Shown here piece by piece: positions 17,701-59,767 of a stretch of 64,000 nucleotides of DNA. The position numbers were made by a program, and so were the translations under genes. Positions within the stretch are counted from its first letter, which is position 1; the number at the start of each line of letters is the position of its first letter. Below the pieces are notes generated by a model. It worked only from the letters and a program-made list of their open reading frames with translations, searched no databases and had not been told where the DNA came from. This DNA is from Amoebophrya sp. A120 (Eukaryota > Protista > Dinoflagellata): positions 1,998,391 to 2,062,390 of the forward strand of contig CAJINV010000004.1 in NCBI GenBank assembly GCA_905178155.1. The letters run 5' to 3'.

Positions 17701-18417
17701 ACTCTCCCGTGCAGAGATCGGGGCTGGACGAAGCAAGAAAGGACTTGACGCTGCTATTGGAAAGTTTCTTTTTTGTTGTAACTGCTATCTACCAACAATT
17801 CTGTATCACGCACGGCTCGTCGAGTACTATCGTACTCGACCACTGTCAACAACATGTAGTAGATGAAATTCTTTCACAAGGACGTGAACAAACACGTTTT
17901 CATTGTTGAAGCCCGACTTTCCTTGCAAGTGCAGTTCTTTCTCCCTGAATTTCAATGTCGTAATAAACGCACCATCTCTAGTTGGTAGCATTTCAACTTC
18001 CAGGGTTCTCGAGGACATGCAGCTATGTGTAAACCTAAAGAGTTTGTGAATTCATCATCGACATCAACTGGGATTGAAAATCCCGCCATTCCCAACTGCC
18101 GCGTTGCATCTCGCGAATCCTGTCGCAGAATCCTGCGAGTTTTCGCGCTGGGAATCAGGGACTTCCGAATCCCACCACGGGATTTCCGAAGCGCTACCGC
18201 CTTCCAGGTTCTGTTGCCAACGACGACCCTCTGTACTGCCCGAGTACGTGTGCCAGCATGTGCAGTAGTCGGGAAAAACGGCCAGTGCGGCGCAGCTCTG
18301 CATCACACCTCCGTAGAGTATTTGCTGTCGACGACCACTCCATGACTGTACTAAAACAGTCGCTGTGCTCACCTGTTGGTTCACGCTGTTTTACGGCCGC
18401 GGTCGTGTAACAAACTA

Positions 18418-21400
18418 TCACTTTTTCATCACGTCGCCGTTGCTCTCCGCCTCGTCGGGATGGTCTGCCACCCAGCGGCTCACCGCCGCGGCAACTGCGT
18501 CCGCGGCCTCTTCGATTTCGGCGTCGGTGGTGTAGCGTCCGACCGTGAAGCGGACGGTTCCCGCCATCTGCCGCACGGTTCGCTTCATGGCCTCCAGCAC
18601 GTGCGAGGTCGCGTGCCCGTCCGAATGGCACGCCGCCCCCGCGGACGCGGCCACGTGGCTGCCGAGGTAGGCGGGACCCAGAAACGCCTTCGCGTCGGTC
18701 ACTCGCAGGAAAGACAGCGAACTCGTGTTGGGCAATCGCCGCGGTGGCGCCGGGACGGCTTGATCGGTCTGCCGCGTCACCGTTCCCTGTGCCGACGAGC
18801 TGCCGGCGTGCTTGTTTCCCCTCTTGATGTTCTGCTCGTCCCCAACTTCTAGATCCGCCTCGCCGCTTCTTGGAAGGTCGAGGACCACGAAATGCCCCAT
18901 ATCAACCACAAACATGTCTGGATCACGACCTGGAAACTTGTTTACTACGTGGGGCTGGGGTTATAATTGAGAACACTACTTCTAAGCGCAGCCGAAATAG
19001 AATGCTAAACTGCTTTTTTGCATGAAGATGAAGAAGGAACGCTGCGCGTTGTTTAATATCATGCAATACAAATCTCTATTTCCACACGAGGAATCATGCG
19101 CCCGGAGCCGCGCGTGCCAAGATCCTTACATCCTCCCCTTTCACGACCCTGACACGTCTCTGCCTTTGATACTCCAGCTTTTTCACCGATTCCTCCGTCA
19201 AATGGTCGGATTCTTTCACCGCGCAGGTGGAACTCCCGTTTTGCGCCGCCCCGCTCTCGGACTTGGCGGAGCTGCCCGGTATTTTTCCACCGCCTCCATT
19301 CACAACCACGTGCTCCGGACCGACCGCCCGCAAGACGCGGGCCTCAAAGGCGTCCCGCTTGCGCCGGAGCTCCTCCGAGATCCGCGCGTCAAAGATCGTT
19401 TTTTTCGTTGTCTCAGCACGACCACTATGGGTTGCAAAAGGGTCTGGGTCTGGAAGAGTAAGTGCAAACTTGTGATGCGCATTTCAGAACACCTAGAAAT
19501 CTCTCATGCATAGGCAGCAAAAGTTGCCCACTTTCTGTCACCAAAGTCAGGGATTTGTCATGAGGATTAGGCATTGCAGAACCTTCTCGAAGTCTGTGAT
19601 GCTAGGGCTTCCATGCCAGATGACCTTCTGCGTCATGCAAAAACAGCATGCGTGACATCTTCCAGACCCAGACATATTTGCAATGCATACTCGTCGGCGA
19701 CCTGCAATGTCAACTCGCACGCCTTCCCCAGCCCGACGCAGTAGGCCACGTTCTCCGTGGACGCCCGCAGCTTTTTTTCCTGTCCCGCGCCGTGCAGAAA
19801 GGGTGGCAGAATTGGGCTGCAGTTGGCCACCAACAGGGAATCGTCTTTCGGCAGCAACACAAACGCCGTGTCCAGGTTCCTCGCGTGCTGCTGTGCGAGC
19901 AGGGCTTGGTTTTCCGCCACGGTCTCGGACACCTTCTTCAACAGTTTCCGCACGTCCGTCGCTGAGAGTTCCGTGGGCATAATATCCGCTCGCACCAAAG
20001 GTTGCTCGCCGGCACCCTCGATTTCGTCACCATCCGCCGGTGATGCCGATTTGGACACCGCCACCGACTTCGTACCCTTCGTCGCCTGGTCCGAACGCGT
20101 TGCCTTCTGCAGCTTTTCCTCCCGCGCCGCGGCCTTATGCATTGGAAAAGTATTTTTAAAGTGTACTTACGCAATACAAATCGTATGTGATGACAAAGTT
20201 TTTCAAGAACAGAGTCGGAATGTGTCTCCTGTCATGCACTATAACAGGCCAGTTATGAGCAGATCTGTTCTATTATATGGCTCAGATTTTTAGATTTCAA
20301 GTACAACGAGTACGATACTTTCGCGATGTGGATACGCTTGGGACCCCACCAACTGGTTCAGGAAGGGCGTGAAAACCTGGCTGAAAAAAGTGTCCAGTAG
20401 CGAACTCCGCACGTACAGGGCCCCCACGCCCTTGGGCGCGTACACCTTGTGACCGGCGACCGTGAGGTAATCACAGTTCAGCGCCTGCACGTCCACGGGT
20501 AGTTTGCCCACCGACTGGCTCGCGTTCCTATCGCACGAAAAAATGCAGAGGGCACTGCAGCACAATACAAATAGGACACTGATGAAACTTACGAGCGTAG
20601 ATGAACTACAAGTGCTGGATCACTGCGAATAAGTGCGATTTTGTATATGCAAGGTGGTAGAAAACTATTCGCAATATCAGCGCCCTGCAAAAGCATCACA
20701 AAGCTGCGAAACTCCTCCACAGGGTAAGAATATTCTTCGTGCGATAATCCACGTGAAAATAGCAATGGGTCAGAAATTCCCGTTGCGGCAGCTGATTGTC
20801 GTGTAGTTAGGTGATTTTGAGATGATGATACGTAGGAGAACAAGGGATAAACGTGACTACGGCTCCAACTGTGAGACAAGATCCTTGCTGCGTATCAATT
20901 AATCGAATTCTTGGGTGAATCATCAGTCTTCCATCCTTTTGTGGAAGCAAAGCCACACTTTGGAGGTTGTGCGACTGGTTCCACGAAAATACCAGAATTT
21001 TAGCAAAGACGCCAAAAGAAGTCACGGGACAGTCGATCAGGTGAAGTTGCGCAATTCGAGTTGTACATTTTTTTCATCATTTTTAACATTATCGCGAAGA
21101 TTAGGTCCACTTATTGAATATATTCCTCGTTAATCGAAAAATATTTTGATACGGATACCGTGTCCGGGTTATAGTTCCGGGGGGTGGCGCCGCGCATGGG
21201 CGACCTGGGCCGCGGCTGGAGGTATCAAGATGAAACATCCATCCTCCCGATAATTCGAAAGGCGACCTGATGTTCTGCTACTGCTGCTGGCCATTTGGAT
21301 AAAAAAAAACAAAATAAAATTCTAATATGGCAAAAGGCAAATAAGGATGCGTACGGCATTCGCATTGCTGTGAGGCATGGAAATAAAGCGGTGCATGTTC

Positions 21401-24400
21401 GGCATGACGGGAACCAGCCGCATCTTTTCGGCATTGCCGGGAATATGATCAGCGTCTTGACAAATCCATCGCGCTAGACTAGGACGCCTCTTTGGCTTTG
21501 CCTTTTAGCACTACAAATCGACCTCTTCGTGTATGCAAATTAGAATCCCGCGTGAGCAGCAGTTTCTCATCGAATTTATGGGGACAACGGATTTTTCCTC
21601 ACGATAGGGAGGGAGTCCCGCGCCGGCTCCGACTCCGCCCCAGTCGGGGGGTCTGAATGTACGCGCGCCGCCACAGACTGGGAACCCTCTCCTTGTGCAG
21701 GTTATGGAAGCGCCAGGTTTAAAATAGACAAAGTTGAATAAATGATTTGTCATGCATAAAATGCAAGGCATGACGTGCCTGTCTTGCGGGGATGGCAAGT
21801 GAGGCCGACTGTCAGCCTGTTTAGGGTTTGAAATAGAGCTGCTAAAGTAGCATGACAAAAGCAGTCTTCTGTGCCCAAACAGCATGACAAATTGCATTCC
21901 GGAGCTCGGAAAAATTGTCATGCAACGCTTGGGAATTGGGCTTCCAACTGGTATAGATTTTATGCATTACAAGTTACTACTACTTTGTCGATTTCGATCC
22001 TGACAGTTCCATACAGGTGCGCGGTCGCGTACATGACGCAGTTGCGCTGCTGAATCCGGCGCGCGATTTCCGCTTATCAACTGTAAAACTGTCTGGGTCT
22101 GCAAGAATCCAACTTGTCGCGCTGATTTTGGATTCTAAAAAAAATCTGTATTGCATGAGCAGCAAAGAGAGTCCAAGTTTTGCTACACGGAAAGAGCATT
22201 TGTCATGCGGTATAGGCATCAGGAAGCCCTCACAAAATCTGTGATGCTAGGGCATGCATCACAGACATCAGGAGTCATGCAATAAAATGTGCATGACAAA
22301 CCTGAGGGCCTTGTGTTCCGGCTACTCCGGATCGCAATCGATGGAGGGCGGGACCTGCACCGGCGACAGGCGCTATCCAACCAACCAACCAAACCTGGCA
22401 ATCTTCCAGACCCAGACATTTTTACATTTGATACCGCTATTGGCTGTACCACCCCGGTCTCGTTATTGGCGTGCTGGATCGATACGAGAAACGTGTCGGG
22501 CCGCAGCGCCGCCGCCACGGTTTATTCATTGCAACCATGTTTGGCTCGGGAAAAAAGCGAGGTTTGTCACGCTCGGCCAGCATGCCCCGTAAATCTGTCA
22601 TGCACGACGTTACCCAGCCTGTAATAGATACCGACCGAATTTTCTGCCATGCATAACCGCAGGCTGCCATACAGATGAATAGGCAAAAACTTGCTACGCT
22701 TGCTGGTGGTCGTCATTCGCAGCGTCCTGATGATTGTCCAACTTATATCACAAGCTTCCAGAGCCAGACATATATCCAAGGTCTGGAATGCGGGACCTAG
22801 CATGACAAACTCTGTGAGGTTTTTGTCATGCCTATACTGCATGAGAAATCCCCTCCGAACTTGGCCGAAAGTGGGCAGCTTTTGGCACTCATGCAACACA
22901 GATTTTCGCATGATTCAGATTTAGCACGACAAGTTGCAATCTTCCAGAGCCAGACATATTTGCAATCCGTACGGACTCCGGATCCACGACGCCATGCTCG
23001 TCCACGTCGAGGTAGGTAATCCTGTGTGAGAACGTCCCCGCCATCTTCCCAGAGTTGTCATGCAAATCTGCATGATGAAGATGTTTCTCCTGCGCAGCCC
23101 CGAGGACCCTTTTCTAAGATGCCAGATCTGGGATGTTGACCTTGTCTTGCTATAGTACGGATGAAATGATCGATTTGTGACGCGGCTGCTGCACTAGCCA
23201 CACACGACTATACTCTGAGCTCAAATTTGTCATGCGCAACAGCCAAACCTTCTTGATTTGTGTAAGCAGACTCCCCATGATCTTGGCTATAGGGGGTGCG
23301 TAAGTACGTTATTTCACAGGATACACGTAACGCTGACATTATCCCACATCTCCAGGGCCTTGCAAACTTCCAGCACTGCGACGTGTTCCGTTTTCTGCGT
23401 AATCACGTGCCCGCGCTGGAAGTTGTTTTTCGAACAGCCAAAAAAGCAGTGGTTAATGGTTTCGGTTCCGTTGGACATGAAGAGCACCTCGTCCCCCTCC
23501 CGGACGTTGAGGCAGACCCGCACGCGGGTCCGCGCGAGCTCCAGCGCCGCCTTCGCCCGCTGCCCGAACACGTGCGAGCTGCTGGCATTGCCCCAATACC
23601 CGGGTTTGCTGGCGGACAGCAGAAAGGGCTCCATTTCCTCCATCACGCGTGCGTCCACGGGCGCTATCCAGAGTAAAAACGTCCCCACCCCCGCGTTGTG
23701 GTTCTTGTCATGCAAATCTGCATGCCCAGTGGAACATCTGTCATGCGGCTCCGCGTGGCGGGCATTCATCTCCAATCGTGTTTGGTAATCTGTCATGCGC
23801 GAATCAAGGAGTAATAGAATGGATTTGCGAAGTGGAACACGCGTCATCTGGGCCGCTACTTAGGCAGGACCTCTATACTGCGTCGCCAAAGTTGTCATGC
23901 ACGACCAATCGCAAATAAAGTTGTAGATTTATTGTCTAGCAGATTACTTCCCTCCATCTTGGCTATGGGCTGGAGCTGTTTTTACACAGGGTAGGTGTGG
24001 TGCCATTGTAGTCAAGATAAATCGGGTCTTCTGGGGCGAAGTATAGGGGGTTGGACCTTGTTTTTTGGAGGCCGGGATAGATGGCCAGGCTGTGAAAAAA
24101 AAACAAAGCAAAATACTTTCTCAGATTTGAATAAACTGCACACTATTCTAGCATCGCCGTTGAACCGCTTCGCGGCTTAAGTATCGCTATTAAGACGTCA
24201 GATGCATCTCCTCTAGCCGTCGGGTGCCACATGAGAGAGAAGTCCTTAGAACCTCTCAGCCAGACTGGATTTTTAGAGCTTGTTGTATTGTAAGTAAGTA
24301 CTTACCTGGGAGGCGCGACGGCGGGCTCAACCACAACCGGTGGGGCCATGGGTTCGGGAACCGGATTTACCGCCAAATCGTGCAGGTCCGCGCGGATATC

Positions 24401-26998
24401 CTCCGCCAAGAGCTTCAGCGTTTCCAGCACGTTGAGTCCCCACTTGGCACTGATTTCTGTCAGGGCGCAGTTGAGTTCCTTCTTCAGCCTATCGAATGCA
24501 AACATGTCTTTGTCTGGGAGAGTGTGATGCTGTTTGAGCATGAGGCAGAGGGTCTGGCATGCAAAGCCTAGCATCACAGGTTGTGAGGAGGTGTAAGTAG
24601 CGATGCCTAATCCACATCACAAATCCCCTACTTCGGTACTGACAGGAAATGAGCAACTTATTTTGCAGCCTATGCATGACAGAATGTTGTGTGATCCGAA
24701 ATGCGCATCACAAGTTTACACGTTTCCAGACCCGGACATATTTGCAATCCATACAGCACCTCTGCTACGTCGTTGTACTGGGCGAAGCCGGACGTATCCT
24801 GTGCAAAAGTATCGCACTCGTATAAATGCAAGTCTTGCATTACAAATCTTGCTCTTAAGGAAAACCCGCATTACAAATTGTATTTCTCATGCTGAGGAAA
24901 TTTGTAATGCATTTATACGAGTACGATACTTTTGCATTGCATAGGACGCAAGGGCCAGCAAGTCGGCCTTGTTCCCTGCGACGATTCTTTTCGGGAACGT
25001 GCCGTATCAACTGTAAAAATGTCTGGGTCTGGAAGATTCTGAAACTTGTCATGCACGTTTTGCATGGGCCACGATGTCTGTGATGCATGCCCTAGCATCT
25101 CAGACTTTTTGAGGGCTTCGCGATACCTATTCCGCATGACAAATGCCTTCTCAGCGTAGCAAAAATTGCATTTCCTTTGCTACTCATGCAATACAGATTT
25201 TTTTTGGAATCCAAATGCAGCATCACAAGTTGCATTCTTCCAGACCCAGACAGTTTTACATTTGATATGCCGGGCGTTTGCCGGATTTTCTGTCCCTCCA
25301 GGATCGCGGCTCTCGAGGCGGTATCAACTGTAAAAATGTCTGGGTCTGGAAGAATTCATGTTTGTCATGCTTGTCTGGCATGACTCTTAAATCTGTCATG
25401 CACGTTACCCAAGAGCTCCGTTTTTCTGTGATGCAGAGCCGCAGTTTGTCATGCTGAATAGGCAACACCTAGGAGCTCAGAAACTTGTCATGCAGAGCCA
25501 GTATTCGTAGCCTCATCATGAGACGCCACCCAGCATCACAAGTTTCCAGACCCAGACATTTTTACTTTTGATAGGCGGCGGCGACGTGGTGACAACCGGC
25601 GTAGGCCTCGCGCGCCAACGGCTCCCGTATGCTGGGGTGCTCAAGCGTTAATACGTTCCCAGCTGTTACGTAAATTTGTGATGTGCTCTACCATTGATTT
25701 AGGAAAAGTGAAAGGGGAAACCTTGCGCGGCTCCTAATACTCATTTGACGCGGCAAATAATCATAACTCCCTCCGTGAAAATAAAACGACTTCGAGAATT
25801 TGTCATGCGAAGTAGCCGTGTGGCCGCTGCACTGGTTCGTTCTCGTACTGTACTCGTTGTAATTTTTTTGCATGACAATGACAAATCTTGTGACAGCAAA
25901 CCATGTACACGTTTGAGACCAGTCTCATATCCCACATGGTGAGAATGTGCTCGAAGGACTCGTCTACGAGCAGATCGTACAAGTACAGGATCCTGCATGC
26001 TAATGCACAACTCCCCCTCTCCCTCATTTGTCATGCGAAGAGCCAAATTCTGTGTTGGCCTTTTGGCGATACTTGCATGGGAAGCTCTGCTCCAACAAGA
26101 AGAAGCCCGAGGTGCACTACGGTTCTTCGGGCACAAAGAGTTTGTCAGGCGAAAGTGCCATCTTGTTCCCTCGGGTTGTTTATTTCTGTTGCACCAAATA
26201 AAACGAATGCATTTATTCAGATGAACGCTGAGGGGGAGGAGCTGAGTTCACTATCATATTCCGTGCGGCGGCTCCTGCACCCCTACCTCGTTCGCCGAAC
26301 TTGAGCCCCCACCGCCGCTGCCGGACGCGGCGGTAGTCCTTGCTCCGGTGCTGCCAAAGACCTGGGCCCCGTACGATGATGTGGACGCAGCTGCTCCCCC
26401 TGCAGCGGCCGTCCCTCCGGTGGTCACAGTATCTTCCAGCAGCAGCTCCACCTCGACCCCGCTATCGAGTTTCACCACGACTACCTGCGTTTCCTCGGAA
26501 TGGGCCGCCATCTCCGCGAGGTCCTTGGCTGTGGTGGGAAGGTAATGCTCGGGAAAAAAGTCGCGGACGGCACGGCTATGCAGTTGAAACATTAGATATG
26601 TCTGAATCTGGATTTCGATTTTTTGTCAGGTCTTCATCTACGAAAATGCATCTTTAAATAGGTGTCGCCACCTTGTTGTTTCTCGTCGTCGTGCTGGATG
26701 TTCTTGCCAGTAGTTGGTCGTGCGTTCTTTTACGAGAAATGGAACTGCAATTATGAGTAGCCTGGAAGCACTTCTGGTACTGCCATGCGGTACAACAAGC
26801 GGCTACGTACTCTGGCACGATTCGTATCCGAGTACTATCAGCAACACAAATTTTCAGACCCAGACATGATGAAATTTGCAATGCATAACGGCTGAGAAAC
26901 GCCGATTTGCCGGTCTTCGCATCGCCGACCAGCAGGATGCGGTAGCGGTCCCGCAACTGGCGTAGCGGTCCCGCAGCAGAGGAGGAGGACGATGCCAT
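18418..26998 (-). CDS. Fusion: N-terminal Rab/Ras-like small GTPase domain plus selenocysteine lyase / NifS-type cysteine desulfurase
   Basis: GTPase part: [46 protein letters not shown] phase-2 GT-AG intron at 24090-24305 joins it in frame to [56 protein letters not shown] and SAGAACHS. Confidence 0.85.
22075..22433. mobile_element. Introner, family A
   Basis: TIR TATCAACTGTAAAACTGTCTGGGTCTG...CCAGACATTTTTACATTTGATA; CCGCT direct repeats. Confidence 0.9.
23665..23993. mobile_element. Introner, family C (TATCCAGAGTAAAAACGTCCCCACCCC type)
   Basis: Splits the YNGTT|PVD motif; direct repeat GGCGC/GGTGT. Confidence 0.85.
24490..25573. mobile_element. Four consecutive introners (24490-24753 A, 24795-24943 B, 25005-25267 A, 25322-25573 A) separated by micro-exons
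   Basis: Direct repeats CAGCC/CAGCA, GGACG, TGCCG and GGCGG. Removal restores the GTPase G4/G5 region. Confidence 0.9.
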
Positions 26999-29011
26999 GT
27001 CAGTGTTGCATCACAACTTTTGATCTATGATAGTATGTCCTCTTCGGTTCAGATTTACAGCGCATTCACTTCGTACTTCAGCTCGATGAAAATAAATAAA
27101 TAAAATGCAGACTTAATATACAAAGATAGGTACAGGCAGTTCACTGTCCATCGTGTTCAAAAACTGGTCACTACCATCATAGCTTCATCGCTCCCTGAGT
27201 ACTTCTAAATAACGGTAAGGTACCAAAACGAAATCAAAATCGCTACCGTCTCCTTCAGGAAGAGGCGTAGGCCAACGTCTGGGCTGCACCTCGTCTGTGG
27301 GATCTACTTACTTCGTGAGAGCACTACAGTGGTACGGCTTCACTTCCTCTACTCGTCACTCTCCCTCTCGTCTTGTACTACAACTTATCAGGGGTAGGGG
27401 AAAACTATATTGAATTTTTCGGATCCTTCGTTTGCAACTGGCACTGGACAGATAGTGAGATTCGCACATGTTTGTTCACACGAAGACGAAATACGTAATA
27501 CGTACTAAGTACGCCTCGCGCTCGCCATGATCTCAAAGCGGAGAGAGAAAACACCCGAGAAGAAAAATCCCAGGTCGACATGCTGGTTCCTATGGAACCA
27601 CTGCGGCCTTCGACAGTCGCTTCATCGTGTCGGTCCAGCCAGGACATGATTCGTTCATCCTTTTCTCTCTGGATGTCATCTCAAAATGATCGCAACATTC
27701 CTCGGCGGTCGCGTTCGTTATTTTGTCCAACGAAAAGAAGTCCTGCAGTGCTGTTGAAGTAGGTTCCATTTGGAGGTCCTCGAGGATCAAAAAGCGCGAC
27801 AATTTCAAAAATTCATCGGGGCAGGGGAGGGGGCAGCAAGGGTTTTGTGGAGGGGCGGGATGACCTGTGTTAGTTGTAAAGATGCCTGGTGGCCGCAGGA
27901 GCGCTACCTAGTAGTTTTTCAACAAATATCTGCTTCTGGCGCGGACAGATTCTACTTGTTGTTCGTTGTGTACTGCCTGTACTAGTCCCTTCTAATTTTG
28001 TCGTTTGCTTCTGTTGTCTTCTAAATATCTTCCCCCGGACATAAAGAATACTTTTTGTACATGAAAAAACCTCGACGTCGGTCAAGGAACCGTTCCATAG
28101 TAGTACCCACACGGATCATGACCAACACGGATGACCACAGCTGCGACTGGACAGCGGTGGGATGATGGTGCCCAAAGGCAAAGTAGATACAGATTCACAT
28201 TATTCAAGTTTCAAAGTGTAATACAAGAAAGAAAGAGCCACTACTCTTTACAACTTCTCTTATAGTGAGGGCTGCAACGAAAAAGCTTTTCTAGGCAAGC
28301 CAATTGTGCTTTAATATTTGCGTGATAAATACAGTGGGTACAAGGAACAAAAGCAATCGGAAGATCTCCTGTTGAAAACAAGATTTGCTGTGGACAAGAA
28401 GTGTGGCGTGAATAATCATCCGGCAAAAAACAGGAGGTCGCTTCGTAGTATTTTATATTTATTTCATCCTTCCAGCAGACAAAAATAGAGCAATTGGAGT
28501 CGCTCTTGCCTTCCTGCTTTTTCATCTTCTTCGAAAGTAAGCAAGTGTAGAAAATGCTTTCAGAAGGTTGTAATCTAGGAGGTTGTTCATACGTCGCTGT
28601 GGATAGTGGCAGGCTACGTAACCTGCAGCTCCACGTGACGACCAAGTGACCTTGTTTTTTTCATAGCACACAGCAGCACCAGGCAATCTAAATTTCCAAC
28701 GCCGCTACATTCTTGTACAATTATATCAAGTCCTGTTTATTTAGGGTAGAAAACAACTTTGCATCACATTCAGTCCGTCGACGTTGACATTTTTTGTTCA
28801 GGAGAAAGAACTGGAGCCGGCTACTAACTAAAGGTCGAGGACAAAGATGTTGTGATTGTGTAAAAGAAGATATATAAAAGTCAAAGCTTCCTGCCGTAAG
28901 AGGAGGGGGCAACAGAGGAAGGAGTAGTCGCATCAAGTAAGTACTAGAGAAGGTGTTCATCAGAACTTTTTGTCGTCTCGACAGGCGCTCAACATCAGAT
29001 CTTGATGTTTT

Positions 29012-54493: not shown

Positions 54494-56150
54494 TCAGTGT
54501 TTCCCGCTGATCTGATAATCTAAAATCCGCCTGATGAAAGCGAATTCCGTGTAGCGGACGTCCTCCCGATCCCAGCCGCCGGCCGCCAATTTACGCCCGT
54601 ACCCCTTCTCCGCCAGCCAGCCCTCCGGGCCCCACGCGGCAAACTTGCGCTGCTCGACCTCGCTGCCACACAGGTCCGCGGCGTCGTGTTTGAATTGCTG
54701 CAGCGCCTCCAGGTCGCTCCCCAGCGGAGAGAAGTGGGTCAGCGGGCCGAAGTGGTGGGCGCACGCACCCAGCGTGGCGTCAATCAGGAGTTTGTCCACG
54801 TCCTCTTCCGTCACAACTGGCTCCTGCATGGAATCGTGAAATTCGTCAAACTTCTTCACTGCTTCCAAATAGCTTCTCAGAAACGCTCTCCTCATGTCGC
54901 GCACGTCGTCGCGGGCGAGGGTCCGCTGCTCCCGCGGCATGTCTTCGTAGTGAAAACACACGTATCCCAGATCGTTCCACGCCGCTGCGGCGGTTGTGAA
55001 CTCCAAGTCCAAAAAACGGAGACTGCGAGGGTCATCTTGATCTTCACGAGCATTTTTATCATTCCCGTCAACTTCATCGCGGGATGAAGCCGCGGAGGAT
55101 GTCGTGCCAGAAGTGCCAGTCACTTTACCTTCAAAAATCCTGGCTTCCCCCCCATCCGCTGTACCATTTCCAAAAATCGCCACCATGTTTCCCGCGTGCA
55201 AGTCGCCATGGCACGTGACGATTTTCCCGCCGGCCGCGGTCAACGGTGTGAACATCGGCTCTACGTATTCAGCCAGCCATTTCGCGGCCTCCGATCCTGG
55301 TGCTTGCTTAGCTTGCAAGACCGCCTCGCCCAAGAGCTGCTCCGTGCGACAGCTATAGATACCACCAAATATGGGAGGCGTTAGGATCGCGATCCGATCG
55401 AGATGTTGAGACGGAAGAAGTAGACAACTCGTCCTTTGTAATATCCCTGTACGACTGCCCCAACGGCGGAAATTGCTTCTTCAACCTTTCGCGGAACGGC
55501 TCGTACCAAGTTGGAGGGACGGATTGATGCAGCCGCGCGACCTCGCGCCCCAGAAGTTTCATGTCGGCGATGGTTTGTAGTGCGAAGAATGGAGGTTCGA
55601 CGGTTTCGTTTGTTCCTTTCTCCTGGTCAGCATCTTGCCGTTCTCCTAACTGCAACCACTCGTTAAGAAACCAATCTACGCCGCTCGCAACGTGCTTTGG
55701 GAAGAGGTTTTTCTCGCTCATGATTTGAATGGCGGCGATGGTGCGCTCTTCCGAGTCGGGGTCCAGTTCCGGGTCGCGCGAGCAGAATCCCAGAGTCAGG
55801 GTTTGTCTTTCTTTTGCAAGGGTAGAAGAAGCAGATGAACTTGCTCCACCCTCGCTCGCGGTAGGACGAGCAGTGGTTGATACTGCATTTTTTCCATCTT
55901 CAATTACTACACCCTCGCTGGGGCTGGCCACAGAGGGTTTATTGTCAACAGTAAACTCCAAACTGATCTTGTAAGTCTTGCTCCCACCGCATCCGCTCCG
56001 GTCGTGTACTTGGATGGAATCGTGTAGAATGGTGTGCTTGGCCGGGTCAAAGAGATCACTCGGATGTTCTGAGAGGATCTTCGCCACAAAAATACCAAGG
56101 CTTTCAAGATCCTCGCGAAGAGGGAAAGATTTGGTGTTGGCTGTCGACAT
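54494..56150 (-). CDS. Choline/ethanolamine kinase / APH-like phosphotransferase, interrupted by a frameshift near 55355
   Basis: SGCGGSKTYKI, VTCHGDLHAGNM (Brenner motif), FLDLEF...NDLGY. The two ORFs are offset at TGG TGG TATC TAT AGC. Confidence 0.7.
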
Positions 56151-56977: not shown

Positions 56978-59767
56978 TTACAACTTATGCTGCTCCATCA
57001 TCGCGCGCAGCTCCTCCGATGCCACTTCGGACAGGATCCCCTCGGCGACCTCTATCAAGTTTGCGGGCTTTTCCGTCGAACCCTGGCCTGCGCCGGTTTC
57101 CCCGCAGAAAAAAATCTTTTCCAGTTCTCGCCGAGTTTCCCAGCGCATCTGTATCCCGGTGGGAAATCCACTTTTTGTTTTTCGCTTTTTTCTAGTTTAT
57201 GCTGAGCTGTGTAAATGACAGAGACCGAAATCTTTGCTGCAGTTCTTCTTCTAATATGTCCAAATTTAAAACAACTTTTTTTCCATTGTCTCTGAATGTA
57301 AAGGAGCCCTTTCGATGATCCAGCAACACGACAGAGCGGTCGTGACTTCTGTGAAGATATTTTTTTATACTTCTGAACAAGGACTGACGTGAAAAACAAA
57401 TTGGTGGATTTCCCCTGTCTACCCTGTCCCAGCAGCTCGAAAGCCATCGGCTGGGAAAAGCCGAGTATGCGCAGGGCCGTGTACCCGACTATGCCGGTCC
57501 GGTGCAAGCCGGCAGAGCAATGAACCGCTACTGTTTTTCCGCGCAGCAAGCTCGCGGCCACCAAGGCCGCGGCCCGTGTCACCGCGGTTCGATCTTTCTC
57601 CGCATCCTGCATTGCTGCGCCTGAGATGGGGAGATGTACCCACTCTGGTCTTCTTCTATTCGGGAGGACTGCGAGGTCTTCATTTTCGAAAGGAACTTTC
57701 GGTGTTGACGTGGAGTCGACCTCTTCAGGTGCATCAGCAATCAATGCAGGAGGCTCGGCCTGAACCTCTTTTGGAGAGGAACAGGGTCGTCGGCCACGTA
57801 GAAATCTTGTTGAAATACAGTGGCCAAGAGACAGAATTTCTGAAGACTCATCGTGATTTCTTTGATCAGCACTCCATTCGTCTCCATCGGCACACACGGT
57901 GTTTGCCACCGCCGCGAAGCTCAACCCCCGTTGCTGCAACTCGTCGTCCCGAAGTAGCGTCACGACGAAATCCAGTCCCTTGGCCCAACTCTCCAAAGTT
58001 TTCATTCCGGGCGCCCCACATAGCACCAGCCTGCCTTTGCGGACTGGGAAACAAGAACCGGGTCTGCTCGTCGGTTTTTTAGACGCAGAAGGTTGATGTT
58101 CTTCGATAACTCTAGTAGTACCAGCCTTGCTAGAACTTGAGCTCGTGGCTGCTGCTATAAAACTACCGCCCACGATAATTTCCTTTGCCGCTAACAGCCG
58201 CGCCTCGGGGGAAGCAAACCAAGTAACTCTGATCTTTTCTTCATCAGTCTGCTCAACAGCAGATGCAGTAGAATTCTGGTTGGAGCTACCACTCCCGCTT
58301 TTCTTTTTTGCCGCGAGCCACGCGAAAAGAATCGTCTTGGTGCCTTTGTTCATCGCGTCCTGTGCCATCAATCCGACTTCCTTCGGGGAAGAGAAATTGG
58401 GCGCAACTGTATCCCGCAAAAACTCCAATTCCTTGTCTGCGAGTTCCACGCGCTCCTGCAACAGACGCTCCGCGACTGCACCGTAATCCAACACGCCACA
58501 ATTCCGCATTTTCACCACCGCCTCCTCCACACCGGCCCAAGATTTGGCCCCGGCAATTACGTGGTCGAGCCACTGCTTTGTCGGCTGCGGCACGCCGCTG
58601 CGCGCCAATTTCTTGTACACCGCGCTCTTCACCTTGTACTTTTTTAGAAGCGGCACTGCCATCTCGACCACGAACCCCTCCCGCAGGTCCGCCAGGGTCC
58701 CGCAGCGGTCCAGCACCGCCAGCTTCTCGCGCAATTCCGCCACCGTGCACACCTCACAGGGCGCGTGGGTGCTGGGCGCGGTAAGCTTTATTTTTCGTGC
58801 GACCGCTTCCAAATTCGTGGAGGATATAACTTCGCCGGTACTAGCGTCGCAGGCGTAGAGCAAGACGAGCCTGTTTTCCCCGCGGTTGTTTTCCACCTTG
58901 GCATCCTTGTCGTGAATCAACTCGAAACCAAGGGTCCAGGCCTCCATTTGTTCGGAAAGGATTAGAGCCGTCTCTTCCGACAGCAACTCCCTCGCCAGCT
59001 GCGTCTGCAACGTCCGGATCGCCCCACGGGTGAATAGAAGCAGCTCCCCGCGGAAGACCGTGACGAGGACACAGCTACCGTCAAACTTTTGCATACAGGT
59101 CACCGGCAGTTGCTGTCCTCGGGGAGAGTCAGGAGAACCACTCGATGCATCGGGTTCTTGGGTTGGTGGTTTCCTGGAATCGGGTTTGAAAGCGTCGCTC
59201 CCATCGGTGTGTGCAACCGCCGACTCAAAAATGTACCGCTTCGCCTCCGCACAGTGTTCGTACCCGTGGAACTTGACCATCGGTTTCACCACGATTTCTG
59301 GGGGACAACCGGATTTCTTGAACAGCACGCACCCCCGCGCCACTTGCAGTATGCAGAAGCAAAAGCGTTGATAAATATAGTCGTGGAATATGCATATCAG
59401 TACAGTATTCTTCAACTACGGGCTGCGTCAGGTTTTAGAATGGAAAAACAAAAAACAATGACAAATTTTCCATGGTAGAAAAAACTATGTACTTACTTAC
59501 TCTTAGTCCTACTCACAACAAGCGGCCCACCATAATGTCAATCGCTTTGTAATGCGTACCCATGCGCCAGTCCCAGTTTTCCGGCGGGGTGGACTCGTTG
59601 TAGCTGTCGGTGTAGTTAACGACCAAAAGCTCGCCGTCCCGAAAATCGGAGCAGGTAATCTTGACGTGGTTTCGTTTCTCCTGCTCCCGGTAGTACGCGA
59701 GCAATCCGCGCAGGGCCTCCGCATCGCCCGATCTGGCAAGGTCCGCGAGCGGGTGCAGAGTAGTCAT
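56978..59767 (-). CDS. T4 Rnl1-like ATP-dependent RNA ligase fused to a C-terminal cysteine (PTP/DSP-type) phosphatase
   Basis: LLVVNYT, ARGCVL, KPMVKFH, motif I QKFDGS, GFELIH, motif IV EGFVV, motif V KVKS; phosphatase P-loop VHCSAGLHRTG. GT-AG intron at 59343-59559. The 3' exons are approximate. Confidence 0.8.

Follow-up and report, generated by a model that had tools for sequence, protein, structure and literature searches.

Among described proteins, the closest relatives of the one considered here are fusions of a NifS-like enzyme with selenophosphate synthetase (SelD or SPS), a bacterial arrangement passed to protists, and NifS-like proteins donate selenium to SPS (PMC4561486). The available text of that paper names only Acanthamoeba and Naegleria as protists with the fusion (papers cited by PMC number are represented here by portions of their text). 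In trypanosomes, separate selenocysteine lyase (SCLY) and SPS proteins bind each other (PMC7595633) and may serve, by analogy, as a model for a split pair. Here we describe a gene on the minus strand of a 64,000-nucleotide (nt) stretch of the marine parasite Amoebophrya sp. A120 (contig CAJINV010000004.1, positions 1,998,391 to 2,062,390; hereafter the window) in which a NifS-type, pyridoxal phosphate (PLP)-dependent enzyme follows a Rab1-like G domain. The PLP domain belongs to the same clade, with the same motifs, as the NifS-SelD fusions of bacteria, Acanthamoeba, Naegleria, Noctiluca, Biecheleria and Gymnodinium; unlike these, the Amoebophrya protein has no C-terminal SelD (AIRS and AIRS_C) and carries an N-terminal Rab-like domain and two large inserts. 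The fusion is real and restricted to its lineage, and the gene is likely expressed; what it does, we propose tentatively, is join a selenium-donating enzyme to a nucleotide-loaded, non-switching Rab module used for docking.

The original prediction placed a Rab-like GTPase and a NifS-type enzyme in one polypeptide, which is borne out by a single 994-codon frame, by spliced contigs and by two fused orthologues; the domain scan it suggested returns Ras and Aminotran_5 from Pfam, and the G1, switch I, G4, G5, PLP-lysine and catalytic-cysteine motifs it listed are all located in the spliced frame (Table 1). Seven of the ten listed sequencing runs were aligned (X6, X9 and X10 being left out). X3 yields one 3647-nt contig running from 27164 to 17922 that carries Rab and enzyme exons with the introns removed, and X4 one 3532-nt contig with Rab-side and enzyme-side exons, likewise spliced. 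The transcript rebuilt from the exons is 3647 nt long, the length of the X3 contig, and its open frame of 994 residues is identical to Amoebophrya sp. A120 protein P0007. Contigs of X1, X2 and X3 (three of the four runs compared) directly give 14 of the 19 exon joints, the other five being set by record coordinates, depth bins and direct repeats; within direct repeats the exon borders are certain only to within 6 nt, and one extra row among the listed joints represents two introner repeats joined. X5 is unspliced over the junction (its record spans 23777-24818 continuously), X7 consists of short unspliced pieces, and X8, as raw reads, holds introner repeats only.

The two halves meet at a junction intron whose retention would stop the frame at once. 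This intron had been predicted at 24090-24305, with reads joining CCCAG to CCTGGCC as the probe; contigs and orthologues instead give 24057-24305, and the probe has the wrong junction sequence since the acceptor is 24057. Specifically, the contigs join donor 24305 to the acceptor AG at 24057, 33 nt past 24090, both acceptors being in frame; the joint lies at 24054/24304, reading CT..AC after a 2-base shift (three of four runs), and X4 gives the same 61-nt exon by its record coordinates. Use of the 24090 acceptor was not found, depth in X3 and X4 corresponding to the 61-nt exon alone in bin 23980-24141 and to zero in 24142-24303, with the limit that contigs drop rare variants. We rejected this acceptor because it would add 11 residues present in neither orthologue. 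The contig junction is independently backed, since the orthologues continue PPRSDPRYF at the same place where P0007 has PPRSNPLYF.

These observations bear directly on whether two separate genes have been joined by annotation or rare read-through, an explanation we consider very improbable. Contigs cannot prove a single transcript, the organism trans-splices (PMC7789003), and a pyrimidine-rich, seemingly unused AG does lie at 24090; against this, the shorter arm of the spliced joint measures 61 nt in three runs, intron depth is zero in X3 and X4, and both orthologues are fused with the same linker end. An mRNA beginning at 24090 would, moreover, meet an out-of-frame ATG first, and its in-frame start would drop the conserved DYNGTTP strand. 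The separate transcripts raised as an alternative in the original prediction are contradicted by contigs spanning Rab and enzyme exons, and spliced contigs together with fused orthologues largely refute the two-gene reading.

The pairing of the two domains is narrowly distributed. Ras and Aminotran_5 occur together in three of 32 matches of 546-1740 residues, namely P0007, P0009 from Amoebophrya A25 (943 residues, 41% identical to P0007) and P0008, an environmental sequence (a 1140-residue frame on a 3658-nt contig, 44% identical). The next 23 matches of fused length are NifS-SelD fusions, all with the SelD domain PF00586, and the 12 of eukaryote type among them have EHVAV and SAGAACHSD in common with the Rab fusion. 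In an HMMER search of 1.84 billion representatives the same three come out on top, followed by a drop from 716 to 268 bits, among the best 150 of 30692 matches, below which a distant fusion could rank. A G-domain profile finds three of 179 fetched homologues, none of 33 long homologues carries a Ras domain, and no stand-alone relative appeared among 7991 candidates of a G-domain alignment search. Other Syndiniales were not encountered in these searches, which cannot be taken as absence; metagenome contigs gave 24 loci, none with a G domain, and viral contigs gave none, intron-rich genes being poorly reached by such scans. Because both Pfam matches score above curated cut-offs and two further proteins, 41-44% identical, have both domains, the combination is not due to chance. 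No description of a Rab-NifS fusion was found in the literature searched, subscription papers and figures not being covered; the gene ids are not in the PMC7789003 supplement examined, and the available text of PMC13693241 mentions only a Hematodinium IscS.

Although split by inserts, the PLP domain is complete, and every catalytic residue checked is kept: His398, Asp543, Gln546, Lys569, Cys925 and Arg951 are present, with His398, Asp543, Cys925 and Arg951 invariant across 101 aligned sequences. The PLP Lys, the stacking His, the Asp and Gln, the substrate Arg and a Cys placed in the long loop of group I enzymes are thereby all accounted for. AlphaFold models the core with a confidence score (pLDDT) above 90 over 348 residues, and in Foldseek this core matches NFS1, IscS and SCL at template-modelling (TM) scores of 0.84-0.92 by target (human NFS1 0.91, rat SCL 0.90). 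By sequence, the best PDB matches are IscS (E 5e-56) and NFS1 (8e-54), then SCLY (1.6e-40); all NCBIfam scores are below cut-offs, partly owing to the inserts. Fold and catalytic residues are those of IscS and NFS1, whereas AACHS replaces SACTS and Val replaces Lys after the PLP-stacking His. Likewise, the group I fold (TM 0.84-0.90 by target) and a Cys followed by His are shared with mammalian SCLY (PDB 3gzc, 3a9x), which differs in having no G domain, in its weaker sequence match than IscS/NFS1, and at two specificity positions. Of the three such positions studied in human SCL, Asp146, Val256 and His389, the first is necessary for selenocysteine (Sec) specificity (PMC3266270, in the text available); mapped by motif, they correspond here to Val399, Ala566 and His926, the same Val/Ala/His combination as in dinoflagellate NifS-SelD. 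We rejected the label of selenocysteine lyase in its strict mammalian sense on the Val and Ala at the Asp146 and Val256 equivalents; the broader part of that earlier assignment holds up better, as predicted selenium or sulfur mobilisation agrees with an unbroken active site and with the enzyme's descent. Sequence does not settle which of the two elements is the substrate.

The same anatomy could serve mainly sulfur. The protein would then be a cytosolic or nuclear cysteine desulfurase supplying tRNA thiolation, molybdopterin or Fe-S assembly, and its targeting would fall to the Rab domain and the basic insert. The missing equivalent of the Sec-specificity residue Asp146, the ranking of IscS and NFS1 above SCLY among solved-structure sequence matches, the loss of the SelD half, five related proteins with an AlaX-type tRNA_SAD domain and the basic character of insert A all speak for such a role. 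We nevertheless hold it to be unlikely, as the tree groups the enzyme with NifS-SelD and away from an IscS-like set with the EHK motif, the residue after the catalytic Cys is His, as it is in Sec lyases, and no mitochondrial-type N-terminus is apparent by eye.

In a tree of the insert-free core (50 rows chosen from 172), the three fusions form one clade (support 100/99) that is sister to P0056 and P0091 (99/95); together these are sister to dinoflagellate NifS-SelD (100/98), inside bacterial NifS-SelD. NifS-SelD members with organism names come from Noctiluca, Biecheleria and Gymnodinium, and a quick tree of 172 of 179 rows (seven short rows left out) gave the same grouping plus P0045. P0056 (1202 residues) has about 550 N-terminal residues with no domain assignment, then NifS and part of SelD, and may be a gene-call artefact. 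Since the enzyme half branches with dinoflagellate NifS-SelD, the simplest reading of the tree is that the lineage probably lost the SelD half and gained a Rab1-like N-terminus, a descent that the original prediction missed, as it did the conserved basic insert. Sec-to-protein metabolism is detected in both A25 and A120, and Fe-S biosynthesis, in its plastid context, is not (PMC7789003 supplement); selenoproteins and a Sec tRNA are reported from another Amoebophrya (PMC6394959, in part). No paper on dinoflagellate NifS-SelD was found in the literature searched. As a separate observation, P0010-P0021 and P0040 form a well-supported dinoflagellate-type NifS-SelD clade with a Cys-type SelD motif.

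The Rab domain has kept its nucleotide pocket and altered its switches. Pfam Ras scores are above the curated cut-off in P0007, P0008 and P0009, a profile of the three G domains has Rab1A as its best solved relative (E 3.3e-14), and an Atlas model of residues ~11-266 has a small-GTPase fold that aligns with Rab/Ras/Rho over ~180 residues (TM up to 0.80 by row). The likeness to Rab1 extends from this best profile match to G1, G4, G5 and an AHG-like PHG before strand 4; unlike Rab1, the domain has no DTAGQ and no C-terminal prenyl cysteines, has inserts in its switches and is fused to an enzyme. G1 GxxxxGK[ST], G4 [NT]KxD and G5 ExSAK are kept in all three proteins (G5 as EVSVK in A25); P0007 and P0008, but not P0009, have the G2 Thr. 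None of the three has DxxG at G3, the one in the P0008 G domain sitting in its low-complexity insert; Gly and Gln are missing from G3 in all three. The hairpin of strands 2 and 3, judged by eye, ends in EDTV, YDVV and VETT, with the acidic residue retained and Gly and Gln gone; MAFFT left it unaligned, as the inserts precede it in some copies and follow it in others. Long, unrelated inserts occupy switch I in P0008 and P0009 and switch II in P0007, and identity across the three amounts to 12/35 positions from G1 to switch I, 6/87 for residues 53-139 and 27/66 for residues 197-262 (G4-G5-helix 5), making the switch regions the least conserved part of the domain. The degenerate G3 and Gly/Ser/Ala insert reported earlier are real, but the insert falls within the poorly conserved 53-139 segment and is not conserved.

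Equivalents of Gly60 and Gln61 are needed for gamma-phosphate sensing and hydrolysis. The role of G3 is stated likewise in the available text of PMC8514894. With prenylation defined by a CC, CxC or CaaX-type C-terminus and myristoylation by Gly2, neither motif is present in the three proteins; on this ground we rejected lipid-based membrane anchoring, and the membrane targeting put forward in the original prediction is not supported. Since all three copies are without the G3 Gly and Gln and without a prenylation motif, the Rab domain is unlikely to act as a GTP switch or as a membrane anchor; with G1, G4 and G5 intact, nucleotide binding is likely kept. Its motifs predict something like a nucleotide-binding pseudoGTPase, a class defined in the accessible text of PMC12490416 as having a GTPase fold and no GTP hydrolysis or binding. 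AAGAB (PMC12490416), whose domain is a protein-binding module, and the Entamoeba protein EhRabX10 (PMC8514894), which likewise has no G3 glycine, resemble it in combining the GTPase fold with broken G motifs; in contrast to both, G1, G4 and G5 are intact here, and neither is described, in the portions available, as fused to a PLP enzyme.

An atypical yet working Rab switch, whose GDP or GTP state turns selenium or sulfur release on and off, appears fairly unlikely in this light. G1, G4 and G5 are kept in three of three copies and the G2 Thr in two of three despite only 41-44% overall identity, an acidic residue remains at the start of G3, and an Entamoeba Rab with no G2 still hydrolyses GTP (PMC8514894, in part). 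Such a gate would have to work, though, with no DxxG at G3 in any copy, with long unrelated inserts in switch I (P0008, P0009) or switch II (P0007), with no G2 Thr in A25, and with switch regions that are the least conserved part of the domain. The earlier idea of nucleotide gating is weakened by the missing DxxG (3/3) and the missing G2 Thr of A25.

Conservation outside the two domains is uneven. The linker varies in length, and its end, PPRS[ND]PxYF, is common to all three proteins. Insert A has 47/72 positions identical in all three, against 92/174 in the N-terminal half of the enzyme, and in P0007 has 15 Arg/Lys against 3 Asp/Glu; in a scan of 190 proteins it was missing from the remaining 187, and it has no usable Atlas match or look-alike and is modelled at low confidence by AlphaFold. 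It contains a cyclin-dependent kinase (CDK)-type [ST]Px[KR] site at 21203-21192, the only one in each protein; a motif of this kind should turn up once per 1000 residues by chance, and only its conservation is notable. Any role of insert A as a CDK site or as a nuclear signal would be conjecture. The last 37 residues of insert B are partly conserved (17/37). Should the Rab domain be a mere passenger, acquired when neighbouring genes fused early in the lineage and leaving the halves independent or serving only to stabilise the protein, a Pro-rich linker of variable length would be unsurprising, and the NifS clade does fuse freely, with SelD, AlaX-type, Maf, methyltransferase, TusA and Rrf2 partners among 33 long homologues. 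The nucleotide-pocket motifs and linker end are, however, kept in three distant sequences where a passenger would be expected to lose them, and we regard this explanation as distinctly improbable.

We return, then, to a docking role. On the tentative reading we favour, the ancestor would be a bacteria-derived NifS-SelD of the kind still found in core dinoflagellates, from which SelD was lost and to which a Rab1-like copy was added, and the Rab part is likely a fixed docking module in place of the SelD half of the related dinoflagellate proteins. PLP on Lys569 would cleave Sec or Cys to alanine and leave selenium or sulfur on Cys925, in a homodimer as is usual for the family. The enzyme would probably take selenium off selenocysteine and pass it to selenophosphate synthetase, by now a protein of its own. 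G1, G4 and G5 may still hold GDP or GTP; lacking the Gly60/Gln61 equivalents and with switch II scrambled, the domain would be unable to sense the gamma phosphate or to hydrolyse GTP, and, because it has no lipid anchor, it would place the enzyme through protein contacts. More speculatively, nuclear or cell-cycle control would come from insert A and the conserved CDK-type site within it. Several points weigh against this account. At the site of Asp146 the protein has Val, whereas Sec-specific lyases carry Asp there and group I desulfurases Lys (PMC3266270, in part), and the acidic G3 residue is kept (Asp, Asp and Glu by eye), making some nucleotide sensing possible. The AlphaFold model has a pLDDT below 50 over residues 1-202, which leaves profile matches and the Atlas model as support for the Rab fold. 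Named NFS1 and SCLY sequences are missing from the tree, which is rooted on an IscS-like set picked by the EHK motif, and the search for SelD similarity (four SelD domains as queries, with Pfam in agreement), which found none, covered the three fusions and the window. The four runs with splicing were obtained in a single study from two samples and are contigs, not reads, of putative RNA (no run is recorded as RNA, its nature being guessed); since the public gene model could have been built from them as well, we count them as one line of evidence. A more elaborate version strikes us as doubtful: in it the Rab part would be a regulatory head, the timing and place of selenium or sulfur transfer would depend on bound guanine nucleotide or on a Rab-type partner, and also on phosphorylation of the conserved basic insert during the cell cycle, and this control would replace the covalent NifS-SelD channel of other dinoflagellates.

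Table 1. Features of the Rab-NifS-type gene, in window coordinates.
Feature	Position	Strand	Remark
Rab-NifS-type coding region	18418..26998	-	20 exons, one spliced frame, 994 residues, identical to P0007
Start ATG	26998	-	
End of stop codon	18418	-	
Exons 1-5 (5' to 3')	26998-26888, 26571-26258, 25989-25930, 25622-25577, 25319-25268	-	
Exons 6-10	24999-24944, 24789-24754, 24484-24306, 24056-23994, 23659-23325	-	
Exons 11-15	23013-22971, 22516-22434, 22069-22014, 21697-21607, 21217-21159	-	
Exons 16-20	20791-20748, 20524-20336, 20131-19691, 19421-19172, 18894-18418	-	
19 introns	18895..26887	-	17 without possible GT-AG, 2 can be GT-AG
Rab1-like G domain, residues 18-262	24374..26947	-	Pfam Ras E 7.3e-9
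G1	26926-26903	-	
Switch I	26544-26530	-	
Degenerate G3	26436-26413	-	
Gly/Ser/Ala/Thr-rich insert in switch II, residues 88-137	26272..26421	-	not conserved
G4	24973-24962	-	
G5	24457-24443	-	
Pro-rich linker, residues 263-294	24029..24373	-	spans junction intron
Junction intron	24057..24305	-	canonical GT-AG, 249 nt; separates Rab-side from enzyme-side exons
Pyrimidine-rich in-frame AG	24090..24091	-	acceptor of the original prediction; no use in contigs
Group I NifS-like PLP domain, residues 295-980	18463..24028	-	Pfam Aminotran_5 E 2.4e-56, above curated cut-off
Insert A, residues 469-540	20756..22043	-	four small exons; basic, Arg-rich
PLP lysine motif	20454-20446	-	
Insert B, residues 584-712	19813..20403	-	predicted pair of long helices
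Catalytic cysteine motif	18636-18622	-	

Several introns carry terminal inverted repeats and direct repeats of 4-6 nt, as introner elements do, and introners of Amoebophrya A120 have been described (PMC7789003, in part); two of the same family, at 22072-22282 and 25060-25270, lie in opposite orientation and are 84% complementary over 211 nt. Contigs of X1, X2 and X3 start at 27181, 27206 and 27164, the 5' end or a spliced leader not being visible in contigs, and a short upstream frame of three codons at 27000-27015 (minus strand; ATG plus two more, then TGA) closes a single base ahead of the start codon. At the other end X3 stops at 17922 and X2 at 18173 (region 17800-18417), and the 5993-nt X1 contig extends about 4 kb beyond the left end of the aligned stretch, by read-through or by overlap with a neighbouring transcript. 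Elsewhere in the window, 29 long open frames include no selenium- or sulfur-related family, and Rfam finds nothing; weak Pfam matches on long minus-strand frames are to choline kinase (E 2.6e-5, 54497-55480) and dual-specificity phosphatase (E 4.2e-5, 57058-59415). Among the homologues, P0036, P0066, P0084, P0159 and P0173 combine NifS-like domains of related branches with an AlaX-type tRNA_SAD domain, possibly a tRNA-linked sulfur or selenium system, and other NifS-like proteins are fused to Maf (P0048), a methyltransferase (P0068), TusA (P0122) or Rrf2 (P0145).

Both domains are textbook ones, and their pairing was seen only in P0007, P0008 and P0009 among the sequences searched. The Val at the position that sets selenium over sulfur specificity is a third residue state, common to dinoflagellate NifS-SelD, and the fusion would offer a compact, expressible case in which to study the behaviour of a G3-less Rab attached to a metabolic enzyme. 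For Amoebophrya itself, a parasite that contributes to the ending of algal blooms, it would represent a domain swap in a selenium module gained by horizontal transfer.

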